This document shows positions 872 through 12,828 of a stretch of 13,398 nucleotides of DNA, piece by piece (position 1 is the stretch's first letter; each line of letters starts with the position of its first letter). The stretch lies in assembly GCA_005239945.1 (NCBI GenBank), contig SBAY01000326.1, positions 1-13,398 of the forward strand, in the 5' to 3' direction. This DNA comes from Nitrospira sp. (lineage in GTDB: Bacteria > UBA9089 > CG2-30-40-21 > SBAY01). The notes below the pieces were generated by a model. The model ran no database searches. It had not been told where the DNA came from and saw only the letters and a list, made by a program, of their open reading frames with translations. The translations under genes and the position numbers were made by a program.

Positions 872-2065
872 TTATCCTAACCTGTCAACAGCCTTCTGAA
901 TTCTCTCCAGCCCATTTTCTATATTTTTTAATGAGGTGGCGTAGGAGAGTCTGATATAATCTGGAGCGCCAAAGGCATCCCCAGGCACTACCGCCACCCT
1001 TGCTTCGTCAAACAGGAATTCAGTCAGGGCAAAAGAATTATTAATCGGTTTTCCATTGAATTTCAAGCCATAAACGCCGGAGGTGTTCGGGAAGGCATAA
1101 AATGCACCTTTGGGTATTCGGCAGGAAAAGCCTTTGATTTTATTTAGCCCGGCTACCATCACCTGTCGTCGCCTGTCAAATTCAGCCACCATTTGGGCAA
1201 TACAATCTTGTGGGCCTCCTAAAGCGGCTACGGCGGCTTTTTGGGAGATGGAGACGGCGTTTGATGTGGCATGCGATTGGACATTTGCCATTGCCTGAAT
1301 AATCTCCTTCGGCCCTGCCGCATAGCCAATTCGCCAGCCGGTCATCGAATATGCCTTTGAAACCCCATTAATCGTGATGGTTAAATCCTTTACTTTTTGA
1401 CTAAAACTGGCAATACTATGATGTTTTACACCGTCATAAACCAGATACTCGTAAATCTCATCGGCGATAATATGAATTCCATGCCCAACCGCAACATCCG
1501 CTAAAGCCTCCAATTCATCCCGCTCATAGACCGTTCCTGTTGGATTACATGGAGAGTTGAGGATAATTGCCTTAGTTTTAGGGGTGATTGCCTTCTGGAA
1601 TAATTCTGGGGTCAATTTAAAATCATTGGATTCCTGTGTCTGGACAATAACCGTGGTTGCCCCAGACATCTTTACCTGTTCTTCATAACTTACCCAGTAA
1701 GGAGCGGGAATAATCACCTCGTCTCCATCGTCACAAAGAACAAAGATGGCATTAAACAGGGAATGTTTGGCGCCTGAGGAAATCAGGATTTGTGACGGTT
1801 CATACTCAAGGTTATTGTCCCGTTTAAACTTTTCACACACCGCCTTTTTTAATTCTGGTATCCCTGAATCTGCGGTGTATTTAGTAAAACCCGATTCGAT
1901 AGCCGCAATAGCCGCTTCTTTGATTGGCTCGGGGGTATCGAAATCTGGCTCTCCTGCACCAAAACCAATAACATCAATCCCTTCTGCTTGCATCTGCTTA
2001 GCCTTAGCACTTATGGCCAATGTAATGGATGGAGCAATTTTACTTGCTCGCTTCGATAAAATCAT
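872..2065 (-). CDS. PLP-dependent class I (aspartate/aromatic-type) aminotransferase
   Basis: 397 aa. Carries the NSPCNPTG motif and SKAYSMTGWRIGY, which holds the PLP-binding lysine of fold-type I aminotransferases. RBS AAGGAGG lies 7 nt upstream of the ATG (minus-strand reading TTAAAAGGAGGTAATTTAATG). Confidence 0.85.
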   Translation of the reverse strand: MILSKRASKIAPSITLAISAKAKQMQAEGIDVIGFGAGEPDFDTPEPIKEAAIAAIESGFTKYTADSGIPELKKAVCEKFKRDNNLEYEPSQILISSGAKHSLFNAIFVLCDDGDEVIIPAPYWVSYEEQVKMSGATTVIVQTQESNDFKLTPELFQKAITPKTKAIILNSPCNPTGTVYERDELEALADVAVGHGIHIIADEIYEYLVYDGVKHHSIASFSQKVKDLTITINGVSKAYSMTGWRIGYAAGPKEIIQAMANVQSHATSNAVSISQKAAVAALGGPQDCIAQMVAEFDRRRQVMVAGLNKIKGFSCRIPKGAFYAFPNTSGVYGLKFNGKPINNSFALTEFLFDEARVAVVPGDAFGAPDYIRLSYATSLKNIENGLERIQKAVDRLG

Positions 2066-2085
2066 ATTAAATTACCTCCTTTTAA

Positions 2086-2121
2086 AGTCAGACAAGTCTA
2101 ACCTATCCGACTTGTCTGACT
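2086..2121 (-). other. Perfect 13-bp-stem inverted repeat (AGTCAGACAAGTC, loop TAACCTATCC, GACTTGTCTGACT) between the SPFH stop and the aminotransferase RBS; intra-operon stem-loop or weak terminator
   Basis: Read directly from the sequence. On the minus-strand transcript it sits 4 nt after the SPFH stop and is followed by only UUU before the AAGGAGG of the next gene, so full termination is unlikely. The loop sequence AACCTATCCGA recurs at 2993, at 3067 (reverse complement), and with one substitution (CCTGTCCGAC) at 7301. Confidence 0.45.
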
Positions 2122-2125
2122 AAAA

Positions 2126-2932
2126 TTATCTCTCCGGCGTAACACTGATAAACGGTATTGGGCCACTACCGGTGTATTGAGGTAGCACACCATTCCATTT
2201 TTCGATAGCCGCCATTTGAGCCTCTATCTTGCGTAATTCTATCAATTGTGGCGTAACCTGTTCTTTTTGTAATCGTAGTGCCTCTGCCTGAGCTTGAGCC
2301 TGGGCAACCTTTTGTTCTGCCTCGGTCCTGATACGCACTAAATCCCGCTGAGCCTTTAGGGCCAACTGCTCTGCCTGTTGCTTTGCCTCAATCGCCGCAT
2401 TAAATTCACCACTAAAATCAAAATCCGTAATAGATACCGCATCGACAAGCAAATAGTTTGTTTTTAAACGGGCATCCAACATTTCTTGCACTTGAGTCTT
2501 TACCTCTGTTCGTCGCTGGATAAGTTCCTCTGCGGTAAATCGTGCCATAACTGCCTTCACTGTTTCCTGGATAGCCGGGTCAATTATCCTGCTTTCAAAG
2601 TCAGGTCCTATTTCTTGCCAGAGTTTATTAACCATAACAGGATTTACTTGATAATTCAGGGTAATTTCTGTGTTGACTGTCTGCAAATCCTTACTTGCCG
2701 CACTGGCTTTAGACTCATGCTTGCGGATTTTGACATCCACTAATATCACCTTTTCCATTATAGGCACTCGCAAGTTTAACCCTTCACCCTTTATGGTCTC
2801 CTGCACCGCACCAAATCTTGTTACTACGCCGCGCTCACCAGGCCCTACAATCACAAACGGATTGAGCATCGACAAAAGCATGATAACCACAAACGCACCA
2901 ATACCCACCTTTACCAAAATTTTTGGATCCAT
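2126..2932 (-). CDS. SPFH/Band-7 (prohibitin/HflKC-like) membrane protein
   Basis: 268 aa with an N-terminal hydrophobic anchor (VKVGIGAFVVIMLLSML). The core PFVIVGPGERGVVTRFG...ITDFDFS is followed by an Ala/Gln-rich coiled-coil tail typical of prohibitin-family proteins. RBS AGGGGGTGA precedes the ATG at 2932. No NfeD partner gene is adjacent. Confidence 0.8.
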   Translation of the reverse strand: MDPKILVKVGIGAFVVIMLLSMLNPFVIVGPGERGVVTRFGAVQETIKGEGLNLRVPIMEKVILVDVKIRKHESKASAASKDLQTVNTEITLNYQVNPVMVNKLWQEIGPDFESRIIDPAIQETVKAVMARFTAEELIQRRTEVKTQVQEMLDARLKTNYLLVDAVSITDFDFSGEFNAAIEAKQQAEQLALKAQRDLVRIRTEAEQKVAQAQAQAEALRLQKEQVTPQLIELRKIEAQMAAIEKWNGVLPQYTGSGPIPFISVTPER

Positions 2933-2967
2933 TGTTTTTCACCCCCTTTTTAAATTTATAGGACTTA

Positions 2968-3095
2968 TGGGACATATAGGTCTTCCTAAGAACCTATCCG
3001 AAAAATCAACGGATGCCTCAACTTGGTTTAGGGGAAAATGCCCTGAACAAGTTCGGGTTTCCAACTTTTCGGATAGGCTCTAAGTCCTATTCTAC
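2968..3095. repeat. Two inverted copies of a small palindromic unit (ATAGG-N-CCTAT followed by CCGAAAA) bracketing a 60-bp core in the SPFH-pckG intergenic region
   Basis: Plus strand 2968-3004 reads ATAGGTCTTCCTAAGAACCTATCCGAAAAA. Minus strand 3095-3066 reads ATAGGACTTAGAGCCTATCCGAAAAG. The outer 12-bp inverted repeat is CCTATCCGAAAA (2993-3004) against TTTTCGGATAGG (3067-3078). A direct repeat AGTCCTATTCTAC occurs twice at 3082-3110, overlapping the pckG stop. Confidence 0.55.
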
Positions 3096-4870
3096 TGGAG
3101 TCCTATTCTACCGGCTAATGCCTCATATTCCTGACGCAGTTCAACCGGCAGGCGACTACCAATCGTATCCAGAAATTCACCCTGGCTTTTCACCTCCTCC
3201 TGCCATTGCGGAATATTGACACTTAAAACCGCCTCAAGCGTTTCTGGGGACAGGTCAAGACCGGTCATATCTAAGGATGCCGGTTGGGGCAGATAGCCAA
3301 TTGGGGTTTCAACTGCCTCCCTATTACCTTTGCATCGTTCGATAATCCATTCGATTACCCGCAGATTCTCACCATAACCAGGCCAGAGGAATTTATCTTT
3401 TTCATCGAGTCTAAACCAGTTAACATGAAATATTTTGGGTGGTTTCTGCATTCGTTTGCCCATTTCAAGCCAATGCCGGAAATAATCACCGATGTTGTAG
3501 CCGCAGAAAGGTAACATAGCCATTGGGTCGCGTCTGATCTCGCCAAATGTGCCAAACTGAGCCGCAGTTCGCTCTGAAGCCATAGTTGCTCCAACATAAA
3601 CCCCATGCTGCCAATTAAACGATTCATAGACCAGGGGAGCTACCTGTGCCCGCTTGCCACCAAAAATAATCGCCGTAATAGGCACACCATGATGATACTC
3701 TACCCGATTAGAAATCGTAGGACAGTTCATAATCGGCACCGTAAACCGGCTATTAGGATGTGCACCTTTGATTGGTTCACCCTTTTCATCCACCAGAGAC
3801 GGTTTCCATGGTCTTCCTTGCCAGTCAATCCCTTCTTCAGGAGCCTGTCCATCTCCTCCTTCCCACCAGACCGTCCCATCCGGTTTCAGGACAACATTGG
3901 TATAAATCGTATCCTTTTTAACCATCTCAACAGCATTGGGGTTAGTTTTGGAATTGGTGCCTGGGGCTACACCGAAGAATCCGTTTTCAGGATTGATGGC
4001 CCATAACCTGCCATCAGAGTCGATTCGCATCCAGGCAATGTCATCCCCGACAGTCCAGATACGATAGCCCTTTCTCTTTAATCCTTCGGGTGGAATAAGC
4101 ATAGCCAGATTGGTTTTCCCACAGGCACTTGGAAACGCCGCCGCAATATATTCGATATAACCGGTTGGGTCTTCTACCCCCATAATCAGCATATGCTCTG
4201 CCAGCCAGCCTTCTTGTCTGGCCATGTAACTGGCGATTCTAAGAGACAGGCATTTTTTCCCTAAAAGGGCATTACCACCGTAGCCTGAGCCAACACTCCA
4301 GATAGTATTTTCCTCTGGAAAATGTAAGATAAGCCGACGCTTGACATCTAAATCTGCCTTAGAGTGAAGGCATTTAGTAAAATCCTCATTTTCACCTAAG
4401 TGGTCAAAAACCGTTTTACCCATACGGGTCATAATCCGCATATTTAAAACAACATAGATGCTATCGGTTAATTGCACCCCAATCTTGCTGAAGGGAGAAC
4501 CGATTGGTCCCATAGAAAACGGCATGACATACATTGTCCGACCTTTCATTGAGCCATCAAAGATTGCCCCTGCTTTGGCATAGGCGTCTTCAGGTGTCAT
4601 CCAATTATTTGTTGGTCCAGCATCCTCCTGATAAGGTGTGCAGATAAAGGTTAAATCCTCTGTCCTGGCAACATCATTAATGGCTGTGCGATGAAATACA
4701 CAACCAGGCAATTTCTCCTGATTAAGTTTAATCAATTCACCGGTTTTGAATGCCTCCTCTTCTAACTGATTCTTTTCCTCAAGAGAACCATCACACCAAT
4801 GCACATGGTCTGGCTTGCATAGTTTTGCCATCTCATTAACCCATTCTAAAACTGCTTTGTTTTTTGTCAT
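3092..4870 (-). CDS. pckG: Phosphoenolpyruvate carboxykinase (GTP)
   Basis: 592 aa from the internal ATG at 4870, which has RBS AAGGAG 7 nt upstream; the track ORF extends 13 codons further with no RBS. Contains the GTP-PEPCK P-loop (kinase-1a) FPSACGKTN and the GSGYGGNALLGKK motif. The length is typical of GTP-type PEPCK. Confidence 0.9.
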   Translation of the reverse strand: MTKNKAVLEWVNEMAKLCKPDHVHWCDGSLEEKNQLEEEAFKTGELIKLNQEKLPGCVFHRTAINDVARTEDLTFICTPYQEDAGPTNNWMTPEDAYAKAGAIFDGSMKGRTMYVMPFSMGPIGSPFSKIGVQLTDSIYVVLNMRIMTRMGKTVFDHLGENEDFTKCLHSKADLDVKRRLILHFPEENTIWSVGSGYGGNALLGKKCLSLRIASYMARQEGWLAEHMLIMGVEDPTGYIEYIAAAFPSACGKTNLAMLIPPEGLKRKGYRIWTVGDDIAWMRIDSDGRLWAINPENGFFGVAPGTNSKTNPNAVEMVKKDTIYTNVVLKPDGTVWWEGGDGQAPEEGIDWQGRPWKPSLVDEKGEPIKGAHPNSRFTVPIMNCPTISNRVEYHHGVPITAIIFGGKRAQVAPLVYESFNWQHGVYVGATMASERTAAQFGTFGEIRRDPMAMLPFCGYNIGDYFRHWLEMGKRMQKPPKIFHVNWFRLDEKDKFLWPGYGENLRVIEWIIERCKGNREAVETPIGYLPQPASLDMTGLDLSPETLEAVLSVNIPQWQEEVKSQGEFLDTIGSRLPVELRQEYEALAGRIGLQ

Positions 4871-4908
4871 AATTCTTCTCCTTTTCCTTTTTTTTGTTTT
4901 CTCAACCA

Positions 4909-4937
4909 ATTATAACATATCCTTTAATAATTTGCAA
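4909..4937 (-). promoter_or_regulatory. sigma70-type promoter for pckG (minus strand: -35 TTGCAA, 17-nt spacer, -10 TATAAT)
   Basis: Minus-strand reading is TTGCAAattattaaaggatatgtTATAAT, followed about 30 nt later by the AAGGAG RBS. An A/T tract (ATAAAAAATTC) lies upstream of the -35. Confidence 0.55.
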
Positions 4938-4947
4938 GAATTTTTTA

Positions 4948-4976
4948 TTGACATACACCTTAATTAGTGATAAAAT
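4948..4976 (+). promoter_or_regulatory. sigma70-type promoter for the K+ channel-yfhO operon (-35 TTGACA, 17-nt spacer, -10 TAAAAT)
   Basis: TTGACA at 4948-4953, a 17-nt spacer, TAAAAT at 4971-4976, and an UP-like GAATTTTTTA directly upstream. The RBS AAAGGAG sits at 4996-5002 and the GTG start at 5008. This promoter is back to back with the pckG promoter, with the two -35 boxes 10 bp apart. Confidence 0.6.
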
Positions 4977-5007
4977 ACAATTATCAATTATTACAAAAGG
5001 AGTTCTT

Positions 5008-6015
5008 GTGTCTATTCAAAGAAAACTTTTGATTACCGGTCTAATCGTAGGATTTATATTTATTAGTGGGGTTAGTGGCTATGTTTTTATCGAGAAATGG
5101 TCATTTCTGGATGCAATTTATATGACCGTAATAACCTTAACCACAGTTGGTTTTGGAGAGGTTAATAAGTTATCTACCCATGGACGAATATTTACTATGG
5201 GATTACTTGTTTGTGGTATGGGAGTGCTTTTTTATGGCTTATCAATGGTAACAGCATTTATTATTGAAGGAGAATTTAAAAATATTTTAGGGAGAAGAAA
5301 GATGGAAAAAGAGATAAGTAAATTAAAAAATCATATTATTTTATGTGGAGTAGGCAAAACAGGGAAGCATATTATGCTGGAGTTTGTAAAGACAAAAATA
5401 CCTTTTGTAGTCATCGAACAAAATAATAGTCGAATAAGTCAAATGCAAAAATTGGCTGCATTTCTTTATTTAGAAGGAGACTCAACCACATCTGAACTAT
5501 TAATTAAAGCAGGAATTGAAAGGGCAAAAGGATTAATCACGACACTGCCGGTAGACAAAGATAACCTATTTGTAATTCTCACGGCAAGGGAGATTAATCC
5601 AAATCTAAAGATAATTAGTAGAGCCATAGAAGAGGAATCGATACATAAACTTTCTAAGGTAGGGGCTGATGTCGTCATTTCACCTAATGCCATCGGCGGT
5701 TTGAGAATGGCCTCGGAGATGATTAGACCTACGGTAGTCTCCTTCCTCGATATAATGATGCGAGACCCACAGCATACCATGAGAATGGAGGAGGTCTGTG
5801 TTCCTCCTAACTCAAGGCTTATTGGTCAATCAATAAAACAAGGTGCCATTCAGGAAAAGACAGGTCTTCTGGTAATTGCCTTGAAAAGGGCAGATGGCTC
5901 ATATCTATTCAATCCCCCTTCCAGTACGCAGATTAATGAACGGGATGTGTTGATAGTTTGCGGCAAAAAGGAACAGGTTGAAAAGATAAAAGAGGTTGTA
6001 GGAGAAAAGAGTTAG
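5008..6015 (+). CDS. 2TM potassium channel with C-terminal RCK (TrkA-N/TrkA-C) domain, MthK-like
   Basis: Two TM helices flank a pore helix and the selectivity filter TLTTVGFGE (TVGFGE in place of the canonical TVGYGD). These are followed by a Rossmann GxGxxG motif (LCGVGKTGKHIM) and a TrkA-C-like tail. The GTG start at 5008 has a well-spaced RBS. The track ORF start at 4894 would run through the promoter. Confidence 0.8.
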   Translation: MSIQRKLLITGLIVGFIFISGVSGYVFIEKWSFLDAIYMTVITLTTVGFGEVNKLSTHGRIFTMGLLVCGMGVLFYGLSMVTAFIIEGEFKNILGRRKMEKEISKLKNHIILCGVGKTGKHIMLEFVKTKIPFVVIEQNNSRISQMQKLAAFLYLEGDSTTSELLIKAGIERAKGLITTLPVDKDNLFVILTAREINPNLKIISRAIEEESIHKLSKVGADVVISPNAIGGLRMASEMIRPTVVSFLDIMMRDPQHTMRMEEVCVPPNSRLIGQSIKQGAIQEKTGLLVIALKRADGSYLFNPPSSTQINERDVLIVCGKKEQVEKIKEVVGEKS

Positions 6016-8505
6016 ATGCAAACACGAATAGGGCCCTTTTTTATTCTTCTGGGCATAACACTCCTATTTTTTGTCAATGCCTTATCTTCTGATTGGACCT
6101 TTGGCTACGGTGATATCCATCGCTATTTTTACCCAATTCGCTATTTTACCGCCTCCTCAATGAAAGAGGGTTTTCTGCCGTTGTGGAATCCGTATCTGTT
6201 TGCCGGCATTCCTAACTTAGCTGCCTTACAACCGGCGGTATTTTATCCGATTTCCATCCTACCCTATTTGTTTCCATTTTTTTATGGAATAGAACTTTTT
6301 ATCATTGTGCACTTCTTTTTAGCCAGTTTATTTACCTACCTGTTAATGAGGCATTTTAAGGTAAGCCGAGCAGGCGCCTTAATTTCAGCACTCACCTATG
6401 GTTTTGGTGGATTTCTTCTATCCGTAGTTGATATGCTCACCACGCTAAGTGCGGCTACCTGGACGCCGCTTATCTTCTTATGCTATCTTAAGGCGTTGGG
6501 GTCAGACCTTGAATATAGTAAGGCGTTGGGGTCTAAGGCGTTGGGGTCAGACCTTGAATATAGAATTTGCACACAAACGCAAATTCTATATTCAAGGTCT
6601 GACCCCAATCTTGCCAATCTTGTCTTCACCGGGCTATTTTTGGGAATCCAGTTTTTAGCCGGTGAACCCACCCAACTGTATGGCACTTTAATTACCTTGT
6701 CGCTATATACGGTGGCAAAGGCCTGGCAAATGTGGCGGCAAAAAGGGGAAAAGGAAAAAGTGACAAAAGCAAAACTGGTTAAGTTCTGCTTTCAAGGTTT
6801 GACCCCATGGCTTATTTGTTTAGGACTAACCCTTTTTCAGGTATTGCCTTTTTTGGAAATGGTTTTGCACTCAACCAGAACATCAGGGCTTAAATTCACC
6901 CATGCGACAAGCCTGTCATTGGGTCCACATGAATTACTAAACTTAGTCTTACCTTACTGGAGCGGTAATTTTATTGAAAAAAGTCATTTCTGGTTTGGAC
7001 AATCATGGTTAGAGAGTATCTACCTGGGGATTTTGCCCTTATTATTTGCCCTGGTAGCCATTGTTTTTGGACGGAAAAAAAGGATAGTGCTGTTTTTTAC
7101 CGGCATAATCTTTATTTTCTTGTTGCTTTCCTTTGGTAAGCTACTCCCCCTGTACAAGACACTTTATCAATATTTACCCGGCTTTAGCATGATTAGATAC
7201 CCGGTCAAATTCTTCTCGTTTGTTGTCCTGGGCATTAGTGTCCTGGCTGGCTTTGGGTTGGATAGGTTAGACGGCTCGGTCAAGTCAAACAAGTCTAACC
7301 TGTCCGACAAAATCTTAAAATTATTCTCTGGTTTTCTCTTGATTTATGCCGGTAGTTTTCTGGTCTTTTTTCTGAATCAACAACGGATTATTCCCTTTTT
7401 AAAGGAGATTTATTTCCCAGAAGCTCTGGATATTTATGTAGCGGCCTGGGCAGATAGTTTGTCAGGAAATTTTATGCTCGTTTGTCTGATTACCCTGGCC
7501 GGTATTCTGCTTATTTCTTTATTATTTAAGGGAAAAATCTCAACAAGGGTATTTAATCTGGGAATAATAGGCCTGGTGATTATAGACTTATTCATCTTTG
7601 GTATGAGAATCAATCCGCTTGTTCCGCAGAAAATTTATGCCTACAAGTCCCCTGCTTTAAGGTTTTTGTTACAGGATACCGATTGTTACCGCATCTTGTT
7701 AGAGCCAAAATCCGAGAGATATTTTCGAATCATCCGTGGCGAGACATTGGAAGATGCCCTGGTTGGTGTCCAGAATTCATTGGTCTCCAATTACGGGCTT
7801 TTTTATAAAATTTTTGATGCCCAGGGGTATGAATCCCTGACCTTAAACGATTACACCCGATTTTTAAAGCTGGTTACGGAACAGGGCGACTGGAATTTGT
7901 TGGATGTATTGAATATTAAATATGTGGTCTCTAAATTTGACTTGAAAATGAGGCAGTTAAAGTTAGTCTATGAGGATGAGTCAATTAAGATATACTGGAA
8001 TACTACCTGTTTGCCAAGGGCATTCTTTGTCCCAAAGGCAAGGGTAATCAGGGATAGACAAAGGGTATTGGAGGAGATGTCAGGTGTAGATTTTGACCCG
8101 CGAAAAGAAATAATTCTGGAAGAAAAAATTCGAAATCCAAATAAATTTTCGATTTTCGATTTTCGATTTTCGATTTCTTCAATCCAAAATCCAAAATCCA
8201 AAATCCAAAATCCTCGAATAATAGATTACCAGCCGAATAAAGTCATCATCACCGCTTCCTCGCCTGGTGCTTGCCTTTTATTCCTGAGCGACACCTATTA
8301 TCCTGGCTGGCGGGCTTTTATAGACGGTAAGCCGACAAAGATATATCGAGCAAACTATACCTTTAGAGCCATTAGTTTTCCTGAGGGTAGTCATACGGTA
8401 GAATTCGTTTATCTGCCTTTGAGTTTCTTAGTCGGAGTTATTGGGAGTGGGATAACGGTGTTTATATCGATAGGATTAATTTTAATGTGGAGGAAGAGAG
8501 GTTAA
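6016..8505 (+). CDS. YfhO-family polytopic membrane protein (putative glycosyl/lipid transferase)
   Basis: 829 aa. The N-terminal region (WTFGYGDIHRYFYPIRYF, LPLWNPYLFAGIPNLA, LLMRHFKVSRAGALISALTYGFGGFLL) matches the conserved YfhO N-terminus. It has many TM helices and a large C-terminal soluble domain. The ATG at 6016 directly abuts the TAG of the K+ channel gene (gtTAGATGcaa), indicating translational coupling. Confidence 0.7.
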   Translation: MQTRIGPFFILLGITLLFFVNALSSDWTFGYGDIHRYFYPIRYFTASSMKEGFLPLWNPYLFAGIPNLAALQPAVFYPISILPYLFPFFYGIELFIIVHFFLASLFTYLLMRHFKVSRAGALISALTYGFGGFLLSVVDMLTTLSAATWTPLIFLCYLKALGSDLEYSKALGSKALGSDLEYRICTQTQILYSRSDPNLANLVFTGLFLGIQFLAGEPTQLYGTLITLSLYTVAKAWQMWRQKGEKEKVTKAKLVKFCFQGLTPWLICLGLTLFQVLPFLEMVLHSTRTSGLKFTHATSLSLGPHELLNLVLPYWSGNFIEKSHFWFGQSWLESIYLGILPLLFALVAIVFGRKKRIVLFFTGIIFIFLLLSFGKLLPLYKTLYQYLPGFSMIRYPVKFFSFVVLGISVLAGFGLDRLDGSVKSNKSNLSDKILKLFSGFLLIYAGSFLVFFLNQQRIIPFLKEIYFPEALDIYVAAWADSLSGNFMLVCLITLAGILLISLLFKGKISTRVFNLGIIGLVIIDLFIFGMRINPLVPQKIYAYKSPALRFLLQDTDCYRILLEPKSERYFRIIRGETLEDALVGVQNSLVSNYGLFYKIFDAQGYESLTLNDYTRFLKLVTEQGDWNLLDVLNIKYVVSKFDLKMRQLKLVYEDESIKIYWNTTCLPRAFFVPKARVIRDRQRVLEEMSGVDFDPRKEIILEEKIRNPNKFSIFDFRFSISSIQNPKSKIQNPRIIDYQPNKVIITASSPGACLLFLSDTYYPGWRAFIDGKPTKIYRANYTFRAISFPEGSHTVEFVYLPLSFLVGVIGSGITVFISIGLILMWRKRG
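6490..6606. repeat. In-frame MITE-like palindromic element inside yfhO: direct repeats AAGGCGTTGGGGTC(AGACCTTGAATATAG) at 6490, 6520 and 6535, then a perfect 28-bp inverted repeat GGGGTCAGACCTTGAATATAGAATTTGC / GCAAATTCTATATTCAAGGTCTGACCCC with loop ACACAAAC
   Basis: Read directly from the sequence. The arms are at 6543-6570 and 6579-6606 with the loop at 6571-6578. The element is about 117 bp, a multiple of 3. It is open in the yfhO frame, where it encodes KALGSDLEYSKALGSKALGSDLEYRICTQTQILYSRSDPN. It is also open in two other frames, as shown by track ORFs 6449..6658 (+) and 6483..6686 (-). Confidence 0.8.
8146..8209. repeat. Two adjacent heptanucleotide tandem tracts inside yfhO: (TTTTCGA)x4 then (TCCAAAA)x4
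   Basis: 8146-8173 is TTTTCGA repeated four times. The spacer is TTTCTTCAA. 8182-8209 is TCCAAAA repeated four times. Both lie in frame in yfhO and encode FSIFDFRFSISSIQNPKSKIQNPRII. A related TTCGAAATCC sits upstream at 8129. Confidence 0.8.
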
Positions 8506-9170
8506 CCGAAGACATGGTGGGCGCGGTAGCGACCGCATTTCTCTCGCTTTTCTGCTACCTCAAGTTCTCTTGTCAAACGCTTTAAAACCTGGGTATTTTC
8601 TTTAGAGGTATAAATATAGAATCCCAGATTAACTAATTTGTCATTTTTAAGATAATAAAAACCCTGATGTTGCGTTAAAGGATCAAGAACTAATGCGGTT
8701 TGCCAGAAATGATTAAAAAAGTTACTTTGGATAAATTTATCCTCTGGTGATAAAAATATGCCCAGACCCGGATGTGTATGGTACCAACCCAATAATTGCT
8801 TATCCTGATGGTATTCAGACATGATACTGTCAATCATCTTCCAAACCTCATGGGTAAAGATAAACTCACCACTTTTATGTTGAATTTCCTTGACCTCAAT
8901 AATATCGGTTATCTGGATAAAGGTGTTTTCTTTTTCACGCATTGCCTTTCCTACAAGAAAACCACCCACCTCGCGGTCAACCCTTTTCTTGGCATGTCTT
9001 CTAACTCTAATAAAGGCATTAACATCTATAAAGATTCTCAAGTCTTTGCCGTCTATCTCTCCCCAGGACAGCAAAGCGTATTTATCCCGTTGATTAATAG
9101 GCATAATCCCTTCTTTTGGACTAAAGTCATAAACAGGATTCAAATTTATACTTATATCCTTTTGCATCAT
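8502..9170 (-). CDS. JAB/MPN+ (JAMM) zinc metalloprotease / isopeptidase-like protein
   Basis: The conserved Glu lies in REVGGFLVGK. The JAMM motif GWYHTHPGLGIFLSPED follows the H-x-H-x7-S-x2-D pattern and is almost identical to the Rpn11/CSN5 signature GWYHSHPGFGCWLSGVD. The start is placed at the ATG at 9170 (MMQKD...), which has RBS AAAGGTGA 6 nt upstream. The predicted transcription start lies downstream of the track's first ATG at 9200. The stop overlaps the yfhO stop on the opposite strand (TTAA at 8502-8505). Confidence 0.7.
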   Translation of the reverse strand: MMQKDISINLNPVYDFSPKEGIMPINQRDKYALLSWGEIDGKDLRIFIDVNAFIRVRRHAKKRVDREVGGFLVGKAMREKENTFIQITDIIEVKEIQHKSGEFIFTHEVWKMIDSIMSEYHQDKQLLGWYHTHPGLGIFLSPEDKFIQSNFFNHFWQTALVLDPLTQHQGFYYLKNDKLVNLGFYIYTSKENTQVLKRLTRELEVAEKREKCGRYRAHHVFG

Positions 9171-10512: not shown

Positions 10513-10535
10513 TTGTCCCCCTCATTATCCTATAA

Positions 10536-10760
10536 CTTCAATTCAGACATTAGATTTCAGGCTTTAGACATCAGACTTTTCGGTTCTTGCGGGTTTTTTG
10601 TGGAAGTGAATGATTGTAGAAACCAAAAATAATTCAATGTCCAATGTCCAATTAGCAATTAGCATTTTAAAATTATTTCTTTCATTGATGATTACTACTG
10701 CACATTTTTCTTCTCTTAGTCTAAATGTCTGATGTCTATGGTCTAATGTCTGAATTGAAG
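10536..10760. repeat. About 225-bp element filling the recF-larB intergenic region, bounded by inverted heptamer-repeat arms (about 41 nt, TCAGACA/TTAGACA-type units) with internal (AATGTCC)x2 and (AATTAGC)x2 tandems
   Basis: The left arm is CTTCAATTCAGACATTAGATTTCAGGCTTTAGACATCAGAC (10536-10576). The right arm is GTCTAAATGTCTGATGTCTATGGTCTAATGTCTGAATTGAAG (10719-10760). Its reverse complement matches the left arm except for a 7-nt indel. No target-site duplication is evident. Confidence 0.6.
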
Positions 10761-10765
10761 AAGTA

Positions 10766-11552: not shown

Positions 11553-11685
11553 CGGTTCAAGGTTCAAAGTTCAAGGTTCAAGGTTTTAGGATAGTAGCTA
11601 ATGAGTAGTGGGTAGCCAGGAAAATAGTTTTCCACAACCCATAACCCATCCTTGATTTTTCATTATTACCCTGAACCTTGAACCC
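11553..11685. repeat. Inverted heptamer arrays in the larB 5' leader: (GGTTCAA)x4-5 at 11553-11590 and the inverted copy CCCTGAACCTTGAACCC at 11669-11685
   Basis: Read directly from the sequence. The two arrays are reverse complements about 80 bp apart and can form a long hairpin. A small palindrome GGAAAATAGTTTTCC lies between them. Confidence 0.65.
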
Positions 11686-11694
11686 TTTCCAACT

Positions 11695-12156: not shown

Positions 12157-12270
12157 ATGGAATTTAGATGTTATTATTGCCAGACTCCTATAAACAGAGA
12201 AAATTATTTAGAGATAATGTTTAAAGGAGAAATAATTGGTTACATCTGTAAACAATGTCCAGAAAATTAA
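12157..12270 (+). CDS. Small zinc-ribbon protein (37 aa, two CxxC pairs); not in the provided ORF track
   Basis: Translation is MEFRCYYCQTPINRENYLEIMFKGEIIGYICKQCPEN. The two CxxC motifs are 22 residues apart. RBS AAGGAG (12142-12147) lies 9 nt upstream of the ATG. The stop TAA at 12268-12270 is 3 nt before the RBS of the next gene, which suggests translational coupling. Confidence 0.5.
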   Translation: MEFRCYYCQTPINRENYLEIMFKGEIIGYICKQCPEN

Positions 12271-12290
12271 GGATAGGAGGAGAGGGAAAA

Positions 12291-12749
12291 ATGAAGAGAC
12301 AATTTGAAATTGTTCCTGTAGAAGGAAGTAAAGATTTAGTTGAAATTACCTTCAAGGAAGGTTTTAAATTCCAGGTGGATAAGAAAAATAAACTCTTTGT
12401 GAAATTTGTGATGATATTGTTGCACTACGCTGGTGGTGCGGCTACCTATTTTGCTCCTCTTTTAGGATTTACCGACCGTGCCTTCCACAATATAAAAGAA
12501 TATTTCAAGGAATCCGGGATTAAATCATTCTATCACGGAAATCATTACAGACAGAATGCCCGTAAAATAATGGATGAAGATATCGGCAGGATATTAACCT
12601 TGATTGTGCAACATCCGACAGAATCTAATCGAGTGATTGCAGATAGGTTTAATGAACAAAGAGATATTAAGATAAGTTTTAGAAGTGTAGAAAGACTGCG
12701 AAATCAATATAAACTATTGAAAAAGAAGAAAAGCAAAAAAATAAAGTAA
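12291..12749 (+). CDS. Hypothetical protein with a C-terminal helix-turn-helix-like segment (transposase/resolvase-type HTH?) and a Lys-rich tail
   Basis: 152 aa from the ATG at 12291, which has RBS AGGAGGAG. The track start at 12255 lies inside the upstream small ORF in another frame and lacks an RBS. The C-terminal segment DIGRILTLIVQHPTESNRVIADRFNEQRDIKISFRSVERLRNQY has an HTH-like pattern. The N-terminal 90 aa has no motif I recognise. Confidence 0.55.
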   Translation: MKRQFEIVPVEGSKDLVEITFKEGFKFQVDKKNKLFVKFVMILLHYAGGAATYFAPLLGFTDRAFHNIKEYFKESGIKSFYHGNHYRQNARKIMDEDIGRILTLIVQHPTESNRVIADRFNEQRDIKISFRSVERLRNQYKLLKKKKSKKIK

Positions 12750-12750
12750 G

Positions 12751-12828
12751 CGGTAATCAGGTAATCAGGTAATCGGTAATCAGGTAATCGGGTAATCGGG
12801 TAATGTAGGAGACCGCTCACCGATTACC
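12751..12828. repeat. (A/G)GGTAATC hepta/octamer tandem array of about 7 units followed by its inverted copy CGATTACC; intergenic hairpin between the 152-aa ORF and the downstream HTH-TPR gene
   Basis: 12751-12804 reads CGGTAATCAGGTAATCAGGTAATCGGTAATCAGGTAATCGGGTAATCGGGTAAT. The loop is GTAGGAGACCGCTCAC. CGATTACC at 12821-12828 is the reverse complement of GGTAATCG. No U-tract follows, so it is not a classic terminator. Confidence 0.7.

Follow-up and report, generated by a model that had tools for sequence, protein, structure and literature searches.

A probable 91-bp MITE in the pckG–SPFH spacer and a separate 9-bp repeat array, with an in-frame copy in yfhO, on a metagenome-assembled contig

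Described repeat systems and the contig under study

[quoted passage not shown] The short tandemly repeated repetitive (STRR) sequences of cyanobacteria, STRR1–3, are heptamers. According to PMC2516522, the target recognised by IS1031-group elements is 3 nt long, and TAA is the duplication made by IS1237 of the IS5 family. Among cyanobacterial MITEs, Nezha is given as 130–170 bp long with ends shared with ISNpu3 (Zhou et al. 2008, as summarised in PMC3184786), and the same source cites the Rickettsia palindromic elements (RPEs) as Rickettsia-specific and 105–146 bp in length (Ogata et al. 2000).

Here we analysed a whole metagenome-assembled contig of 13,398 bp with 39% G+C, referred to below as the window (Table 1). 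Its nearest relatives, found through homologues of YfhO and SPFH, are uncultured and are labelled "Nitrospirota bacterium" or only "bacterium". The closest of them, GCA_043816605.1 (L002), has an 80% identical YfhO and keeps the pckG–SPFH order; a second relative, L128, has an 87% identical SPFH protein and keeps the SPFH–aminotransferase adjacency. An independent Logan assembly of the same organism as the window (L001) was also available. No gene is called in L128 over the 1.9 kb upstream of SPFH (3437–5301), where 4900–5278 clearly encodes the PEPCK C-terminus, and the pckG gene of L128 may be frameshifted or miscalled.

The explanation that we consider probable is that a MITE lies in the pckG–SPFH spacer, that a separate 9-bp repeat array forms the hairpin at 2086–2121 and was copied into yfhO, and that the resemblance between the two is coincidental. 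Both are known kinds of ordinary mobile or repeat DNA and hold no surprise for a mobile-element specialist. Like the IS5-family MITEs of the IS1031/IS427 type, the spacer element is small (91 bp) and has no ORF, carries ends of about 15 nt that start with GAG, is flanked by a 3-bp TNA (here TWA) duplication, folds over its whole length into a hairpin, belongs to a set with an intergenic bias, and shows filled and empty orthologous sites. It differs from them in that its transposase family is assigned indirectly, no insertion sequence (IS) with the same ends having been found, and in that a single 15-nt end is combined with no fewer than 29 unrelated interiors, spread over about 41 assemblies from several phyla. 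Nezha and other cyanobacterial MITEs belong to the same element class and are supported by evidence of the same type (a stable fold, direct and inverted repeats, and sites that are empty in some genomes and filled in others), and some copies of the present superfamily lie in cyanobacterial MAGs; Nezha is set apart from the window MITE by its description (size and ISNpu3 ends) rather than by an end-sequence comparison.

Table 1 Coordinates of genes and repeat features in the window, named according to the preferred reading
Feature	Positions	Strand	Remarks
YgjP-like gene	28–720	minus	
Class I/II aminotransferase gene	872–2065	minus	
Hairpin, 9-bp tandem array	2086–2121	minus	Four degenerate 9-bp units, AGTCAGACA AGTCGGATA GGTTAGACT TGTCTGACT
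SPFH/Band-7 gene	2126–2932	minus	
9-bp tandem array (TTATAGGAC) x 3.2	2956–2984		Host spacer outside the MITE; found with TRF
Target-site duplication TAA, left copy	2987–2989		Identical to 3081–3083
MITE, whole element	2990–3080	none	91 bp, without ORF; one long imperfect hairpin; end form GARCCTATCCGAAAA; interior stretch, e.g. TTTAGGGGAAAATGCCCTGAAC
Left terminal inverted repeat, GAACCTATCCGAAAAA	2990–3005	plus	Spacer inverted repeat; family consensus GAGCCTATCCGAAAA
Right terminal inverted repeat	3065–3080	minus	Minus strand reads GAGCCTATCCGAAAAG
Target-site duplication TAA, right copy	3081–3083		
Two direct copies of GTCCTATTCTAC	3084–3095, 3100–3111		Host, 3' end of pckG; also in L002
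pckG (GTP-dependent PEP carboxykinase)	3092–4909	minus	
TrkA-type K+ channel gene	4894–6015	plus	
yfhO	6016–8505	plus	
In-frame copy of the 9-bp repeat	7260–7308	plus	Variable yfhO loop; encodes DRLDGSVKSNKSNLSD

The element in the pckG–SPFH spacer and its relatives in other genomes

The pckG–SPFH spacer contains an inverted repeat (2986–3004 and 3066–3084) that matches at 17 of 19 positions and includes a perfect 12-mer. The 16-nt terminal inverted repeats agree at 14 of 16 positions, and the ends follow the pattern GA(A/G)CCTATCCGAAAA(A/G). With its 91 bp the element is smaller than about 500 bp, and it contains no ORF of its own of at least 80 aa; a mechanically called, unrelated plus-strand ORF (2670–3083) runs through it. 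The whole element is predicted to fold as one hairpin (−45.9 kcal/mol, z = −7.2). The orthologous site is uninterrupted both in L128 and in L002 (GGAC-TTA-TAAGAC): read in the mRNA sense, the L002 junction is ...GGAATAGGAC TTA TAAGACTTATATGTCC... with a single TTA/TAA, against ...GAATAGGAC TTA (GAGCCTATCCGAAAAG ... TTTTTCGGATAGGTTC) TTA GGAAGACCTATATGTCC... in the window, where the brackets enclose the element. The lack of an insertion in L002 and L128, together with the 16-nt ends and the 3-bp duplication, indicates that the window carries a 91-bp insertion at 2990–3080. The initial annotation had described the repeats as MITE-like, and for this spacer the description was apt, except that what was counted as two inverted copies is a single element with its two ends. 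All the strings that it quoted exist, a few bases away from where they had been placed: ATAGGTCTTCCTAAGAACCTATCCGAAAAA lies at 2976–3005 instead of 2968–3004, TTTTCGGATAGG at 3066–3077, TAACCTATCCGAC at 2099–2111 and the yfhO string at 7261–7314. The independent Logan contig stops 27 nt inside the MITE, as de Bruijn assemblies do at repeats; this is only a hint that the source genome has further copies.

The MITE is flanked by older host repeats. The (TTATAGGAC)n array is also found in L002, which has no MITE, and is cut down in L128 to a single ATAGGAC...GTCCTAT pair; it is ancestral, pre-dates the insertion and is the source of the ATAGG arm at 2976. On the other side, the direct copies of GTCCTATTCTAC are inverted relative to the ATAGGAC array, and the pckG stop codon (3092–3094, minus strand) falls within their region (3084–3111).

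The inverted copies had also been thought to bracket the pckG terminator and the SPFH promoter. What they bracket is the interior of the MITE instead of a terminator or promoter of the host. In L128 a gap of only about 23 nt, containing the Shine-Dalgarno sequence GGAGG, separates the pckG stop from the SPFH start, and the tight, empty junctions of L128 and L002 imply that the two genes originally met at an operon junction too short to accommodate a terminator and a promoter. A consensus scan for promoters and terminators over 1900–3300 was negative in both spacers. Like their counterparts in the relatives, pckG and SPFH are probably transcribed together. The annotation of this spacer is thereby corrected from host regulatory signals to a transposon insertion. 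In two more distant relatives the neighbouring spacers are enlarged, that of pckG–SPFH to 754 nt (L129, 5247–6000) and that of SPFH–aminotransferase to 485 nt (L131, 1221–1705), and they carry other inverted-repeat elements and (GGTAATTG)-type arrays; both spacers are recurrent landing sites for repeat DNA.

The pattern CCTATCCGAAAN{48,78}TTTCGGATAGG was then scanned against one genome per bacterial or archaeal species. At least 118 loci matched it from end to end, against a chance expectation that we estimate at about 2, and at least 123 elements with the MITE ends are present in other genomes, so that the window MITE is a member of a very large, end-defined family. The matches listed come from about 41 assemblies, labelled as Anaerolineae/Chloroflexota, Planctomycetota, Cyanobacteria, Desulfobacteraceae, Saprospiraceae, Sumerlaeota and Abditibacteriales, with one Lachnospiraceae bin and the cultured Neorhodopirellula pilleata Pla100 (Planctomycetota) also among them. 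Many copies per genome occur at unrelated loci, at least 30 of them in Anaerolineae H23_299. Nearly all copies listed read TNA–G(A/T)(G/A)CCTATCCGAAAA...TTTTCGGATAGG(C/T)(T/A)C–TNA, and the consensus of their 15–16-nt terminal inverted repeats is GAGCCTATCCGAAAA. The 3-bp flanks are identical in 78 of the 119 listed copies (TTA or TAA in 72 of these 78) and differ in the other 41; when the same comparison was made at seven other offsets, identity was seen in 0–2 of 118 listed copies at six of them and in 12 of 118 at the seventh. The terminal triplet is GAG at 59 left and 71 right ends of the 119. The listed copies fall inside a long open frame in 35% of cases, versus 86% for random segments of the same loci. 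Their interiors form at least 29 unrelated clusters, held by Chloroflexota, Planctomycetota, Cyanobacteria, Desulfobacterota, Bacteroidota and others, and the window MITE is a singleton that matches none of the other 122 copies listed. Viral contigs yielded one further MITE of about 130 bp with TAAGAGCCTATCCGAAAA, and no match to the interior of the window MITE. Full-text literature searches with the end sequences returned unrelated primer matches only and no description of the end, and a plasmid BLAST search with a cyanobacterial copy returned only noise. The largest cluster consists of L006, L008, L009 and 32 other Planctomycetota copies, and its CCTATCCGAAAA ends are followed immediately inwards by subterminal GGGGTCTGACCC/GGGTCAGACCCC arms; a GGGGTCAGACC core is common to this cluster and to an unrelated palindrome in the yfhO gene of the window, which may be a coincidence.

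The terminal inverted repeats, the fixed 3-bp TWA duplication and the empty sites define a cut-and-paste, DDE-type non-autonomous element. No autonomous IS was found among end pairs 600–2500 bp apart, which are separate MITEs flanking ordinary genes; orphan ends in 0.85 Mb of flanking DNA likewise adjoin ordinary genes and no IS, and none of the 1378 ORFs of the MITE loci is multi-copy (a count that covers the 0.85 Mb of flanks). Because no autonomous partner was found there, in the literature or in plasmids, we infer the parent from the duplication and the termini only, and these would place it in the IS5 family as an IS1031-like element: among the listed copies, the TNA duplication and the GAG termini fit the IS1031-type signature. 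A DDE transposase acting in trans would recognise the 15–16-nt ends and make staggered cuts, 3 nt apart, at a TWA target, and the element would have been pasted 11 nt downstream of the pckG stop codon with duplication of TAA. The MITE would now lie within the pckG–SPFH intercistronic RNA, where its −46 kcal/mol hairpin could form and might affect mRNA stability or read-through.

With its filled and empty states, this locus is a clear-cut case of a MITE insertion; the 15-nt ends of the element are found again in many phyla and are a useful key for searching metagenomes for the element class and for its transposase. A far wider reading would be that GAGCCTATCCGAAAA defines a very large cross-phyla MITE superfamily that no recognisable IS nearby mobilises and that is served by an undescribed or host-domesticated, horizontally spreading IS5/Harbinger-like transposase, and that, separately, the GTYNGAC arrays and GGGGTCAGACC palindromes are active repeats which, in this uncultured lineage, insert themselves in frame into the loops of membrane proteins. 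We regard this as an unlikely extension of the preferred reading, a MITE beside a separate 9-bp array. What is left of most interest is the breadth of the end-defined superfamily, for which no transposase was found, and the tolerance of YfhO for in-frame repeats.

The 9-bp array at 2086–2121 and the yfhO segment

The sequence at 2086–2121, between the SPFH stop codon (2126–2128) and the aminotransferase start (2065), forms a hairpin with a 12–13-bp stem (−21.1 kcal/mol, z = −4.5). Its units follow the consensus GTYNGACNN, with the core GTYNGAC and a period of 9. Since GTCAGAC and GTCTGAC are reverse complements of each other, such arrays fold on themselves. The SPFH–aminotransferase spacer of L128 (77 nt) holds six units, GTCAAACAG GTTAGACGA GTCAGACAG GTTAGACTC GTCCGACCT GTCTGAGCT, with a predicted fold of −29.2 kcal/mol (z = −5.1). 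The window array (four units) aligns with it at 83% identity once gaps of 9 and 8 nt are allowed, and these indels are unit-number variation of a degenerate 9-bp repeat. As in short tandem repeats generally, the units stand head to tail at a constant period and vary in number between orthologous loci. The hairpin sequence is identical in the independent Logan assembly and is therefore not an assembly artefact. It stands 4 nt behind the SPFH stop, with the Shine-Dalgarno sequence of the aminotransferase gene about 8 nt further on, and is followed by only three U residues; its role would be at most that of a REP-like intercistronic stem. According to this model, the array is ancestral to the spacer and changes by gain or loss of whole units.

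A second copy of the repeat lies within yfhO, where the segment reads GTTAGACGG CTCGGTCAA GTCAAACAA GTCTAACCT GTCCGACAA. The near-identical 25-mer reported earlier for yfhO and the hairpin is real, with 23 of 25 positions identical, or 25 of 27 over the longer span of 7282–7308 and 2085–2111. This is the only dispersed pair of such quality in the window, and none of 200 first-order Markov shuffles yielded one. In addition, 7261–7273 is the reverse complement of 2096–2108. TRF reports a period of 9 at 7281–7299, and the segment has a stable predicted fold (−27.4 kcal/mol, z = −5.7). Among 13 aligned YfhO proteins, DRLDGSVKSNKSNLSD is unique to the window and absent from the other 12; in other homologues the variable loop is 4 residues shorter, as in L002 with YDYLIPNIKEKGDK. 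At the nucleotide level, 48 nt of the window gene stand in place of 36 nt of L002, which is a replacement and not a simple insertion, and the segment has neither MITE-type terminal inverted repeats nor a target duplication. A conserved protein motif, KSNLSD, had been named as another possible source of the match; it is not conserved in the YfhO alignment.

The direction of copying can be read from the relatives: the spacer array is present in L128 and thus ancestral, the yfhO copy is absent elsewhere and thus derived, and hence the copying went from the spacer to yfhO. The yfhO copy shares window-specific variants (GTCG..., CTTGT) and keeps GAC where the spacer has GAT. We propose that three consecutive units and a 13-nt inverted piece would have been copied in frame into the variable yfhO loop in this lineage only, perhaps by ectopic conversion or by template switching between quasi-palindromes. 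The earlier idea of a repeat co-opted into coding sequence thus survives as a lineage-specific, in-frame repeat in yfhO, but the repeat is the 9-bp array and not the MITE. Further members of the 25-mer family, for which the initial annotation had suggested a motif search, were sought in a metagenome collection that does not contain the source genome: the 20-mer core ACAAGTCTAACCTRTCCGAC gave four chance-level matches in unrelated coding sequences, three of them in one and the same coding sequence (MTQQYKSNLSDK...).

Could the 36-nt hairpin and the yfhO segment be a REP-type palindrome mobilised by a RAYT (Y1) transposase? The size of 36 nt, the imperfect palindrome, the intercistronic place between co-oriented genes, which is the typical REP/BIME position, and the second copy elsewhere would all suit such an origin, and by analogy the hairpin could possibly have a REP-like consequence as a 3' stem on the upstream message. 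However, it carries no GTAG or CGTC head of the kind that PMC3733652 describes for REP superfamilies, no RAYT gene is seen in the window, the array is confined to two loci within about 98 kb of DNA of this lineage, and it differs from its orthologous locus by whole 9-bp units, as tandem repeats do. The MITE is likewise distinct from REP/BIME sequences, being 91 bp long with a target duplication. A REP origin therefore appears quite improbable to us, although a tandem-repeat array and a low-copy palindromic mobile unit are not fully separable for 2086–2121 and the yfhO segment, given only two loci in about 98 kb.

Even less tenable is the original proposal of a single CCTATCCGA family, in which all four sites would belong to one palindromic REP/MITE-like family (core CCTATCCGAMAAA) that recombines and enters coding sequence. 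In its favour are the 11-mer AACCTATCCGA common to 2100–2110 and 2991–3001, and the resemblance of CCTGTCCGACAAAATC in yfhO to CCTATCCGAAAAATC. This 11-mer is the sole sequence shared by what are two unrelated kinds of repeat, and in 15% of shuffled windows (P about 0.15) a stretch of at least 11 nt from the two 20-nt MITE ends is found again elsewhere. The window unit that resembles the MITE end, GTCGGATAG (plus strand CTATCCGAC), aligns with the L128 unit GTCAGACAG, and the orthologous L128 sequence is CCTGTCTGAC. Taken together, the L128 unit and the P value show the 11-nt resemblance to be a coincidence, produced by two substitutions in an ordinary unit. In yfhO, the GACAAAATC (DKI) that follows the segment is ancestral coding sequence also present in L002, so that the further agreement between CCGACAAAATC and CCGAAAAATC of the MITE end is coincidental as well. 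Moreover, the hairpin and yfhO copies have no GAG terminus, no AAAA tract, no partner repeat in MITE orientation and no TWA duplication. The one-family model is thus largely refuted, and we give it very little credence. The hairpin loop TAACCTATCCGAC was also considered as a solo remnant of a MITE end and rejected; it has no GAG triplet and A-tract and aligns to an ordinary L128 unit.

It is still harder to see the region 2990–3080 and its relatives as a conserved structured non-coding RNA closed by a CCUAUCCGAAAA/UUUUCGGAUAGG stem, a view that could appeal to the very stable fold, to ends that are invariant across phyla and to the location within a transcribed spacer. Rfam gave no match at any of the three sites at E ≤ 1 in a search of the whole window, where its only match is a spurious, sub-threshold one to the miRNA mir-266 at 6545–6604, in a palindrome hairpin of yfhO; ARAGORN found no tRNA or tmRNA. 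The at least 29 unrelated interior clusters, the 3-bp direct duplications outside the stem, the presence or absence of the element between close relatives, and its many copies per genome at unrelated loci, instead of one conserved gene context with covarying interior pairs, all speak against such an RNA. Finally, the inverted CCTATCCGAAAA pair, although consisting of perfect 12-mer sites upstream of SPFH, can hardly be a two-site transcription-factor operator controlling that gene, as the sites lie 61 nt from each other, are missing in L002 and L128 despite the same gene order, recur as ends at more than 100 unrelated loci in other phyla, and lie in a spacer without a promoter-like site.

Further repeats in yfhO and on the contig

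The in-frame repeats of yfhO show a tolerance for repeat DNA in the protein loops of this uncultured lineage, which matters for gene calling and for the reading of "insertions" in its proteins. The segment at 7260–7308 is comparable to the Rickettsia palindromic elements in that repeat DNA stands in frame within a gene and is tolerated in a loop; it has no sequence relationship to them, and its 48 nt partly replace host codons. The likeness to the Rickettsia in-frame palindromic insertions is more striking for another part of yfhO, a GGGGTCAGACC-type palindrome at 6484–6608. This in-frame palindrome reads TTGGGGTCAGACCTTGAATATAGAATTTGC-N8-reverse complement, with perfect 30-nt arms (6541–6570 and 6579–6608) and extra partial tandem copies (TAAGGCGTTGGGGTC x3). 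A shorter version occupies the same site in L002 (7320–7381), while ten more distant homologues lack the palindrome there and an eleventh (P0004) has a different insertion. In L126 the palindrome lies at a different yfhO site and in another reading frame (4397–4458, WGQTLNIEFRSKFNIQGLTP). A relic arm (FQGLTPW) is common to several YfhO homologues, and 6786–6808 of the window was listed with the palindrome. A search of viral contigs for the GGGGTCAGACC palindrome gave no match.

Further downstream in yfhO, two perfect heptamer arrays, (ATTTTCG)4.6 at 8145–8176 and (AATCCAA)4.7 at 8181–8213, encode part of a variable loop. At the same place L002 has (AAATTCG)n (8895–8950), and other homologues have 7-residue peptide repeats.

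Near the end of the contig, a plus-strand ORF of 164 aa (12255–12749) shows weak, sub-threshold matches to HTH_32 and HTH_29 and is followed by a (GGTAATCA)n array, beyond which the contig ends without another ORF; the 164 aa may represent the N-terminal part of a transposase.

The intergenic regions of the window contain additional 7- and 8-bp tandem arrays at 10513–10765, 11554–11585, 11668–11686 and 12746–12804. Their units are TTCAGAC/TTTAGAC (with an inverted copy 153 nt away), CAATGTC, GGTTCAA and GGTAATCA. The arrays share related cores, and the hexamer TYAGAC/GTCTRA occurs 28 times in the window against 9.4 expected. These intergenic arrays recall the cyanobacterial STRR sequences, but belong to a non-cyanobacterial lineage. 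As with STRR, short arrays (of 7, 8 and 9 bp) abound in the spacers and coding loops of this contig and its relatives; they differ from STRR1–3 in their unit sequences and in the occurrence of a 9-bp period.
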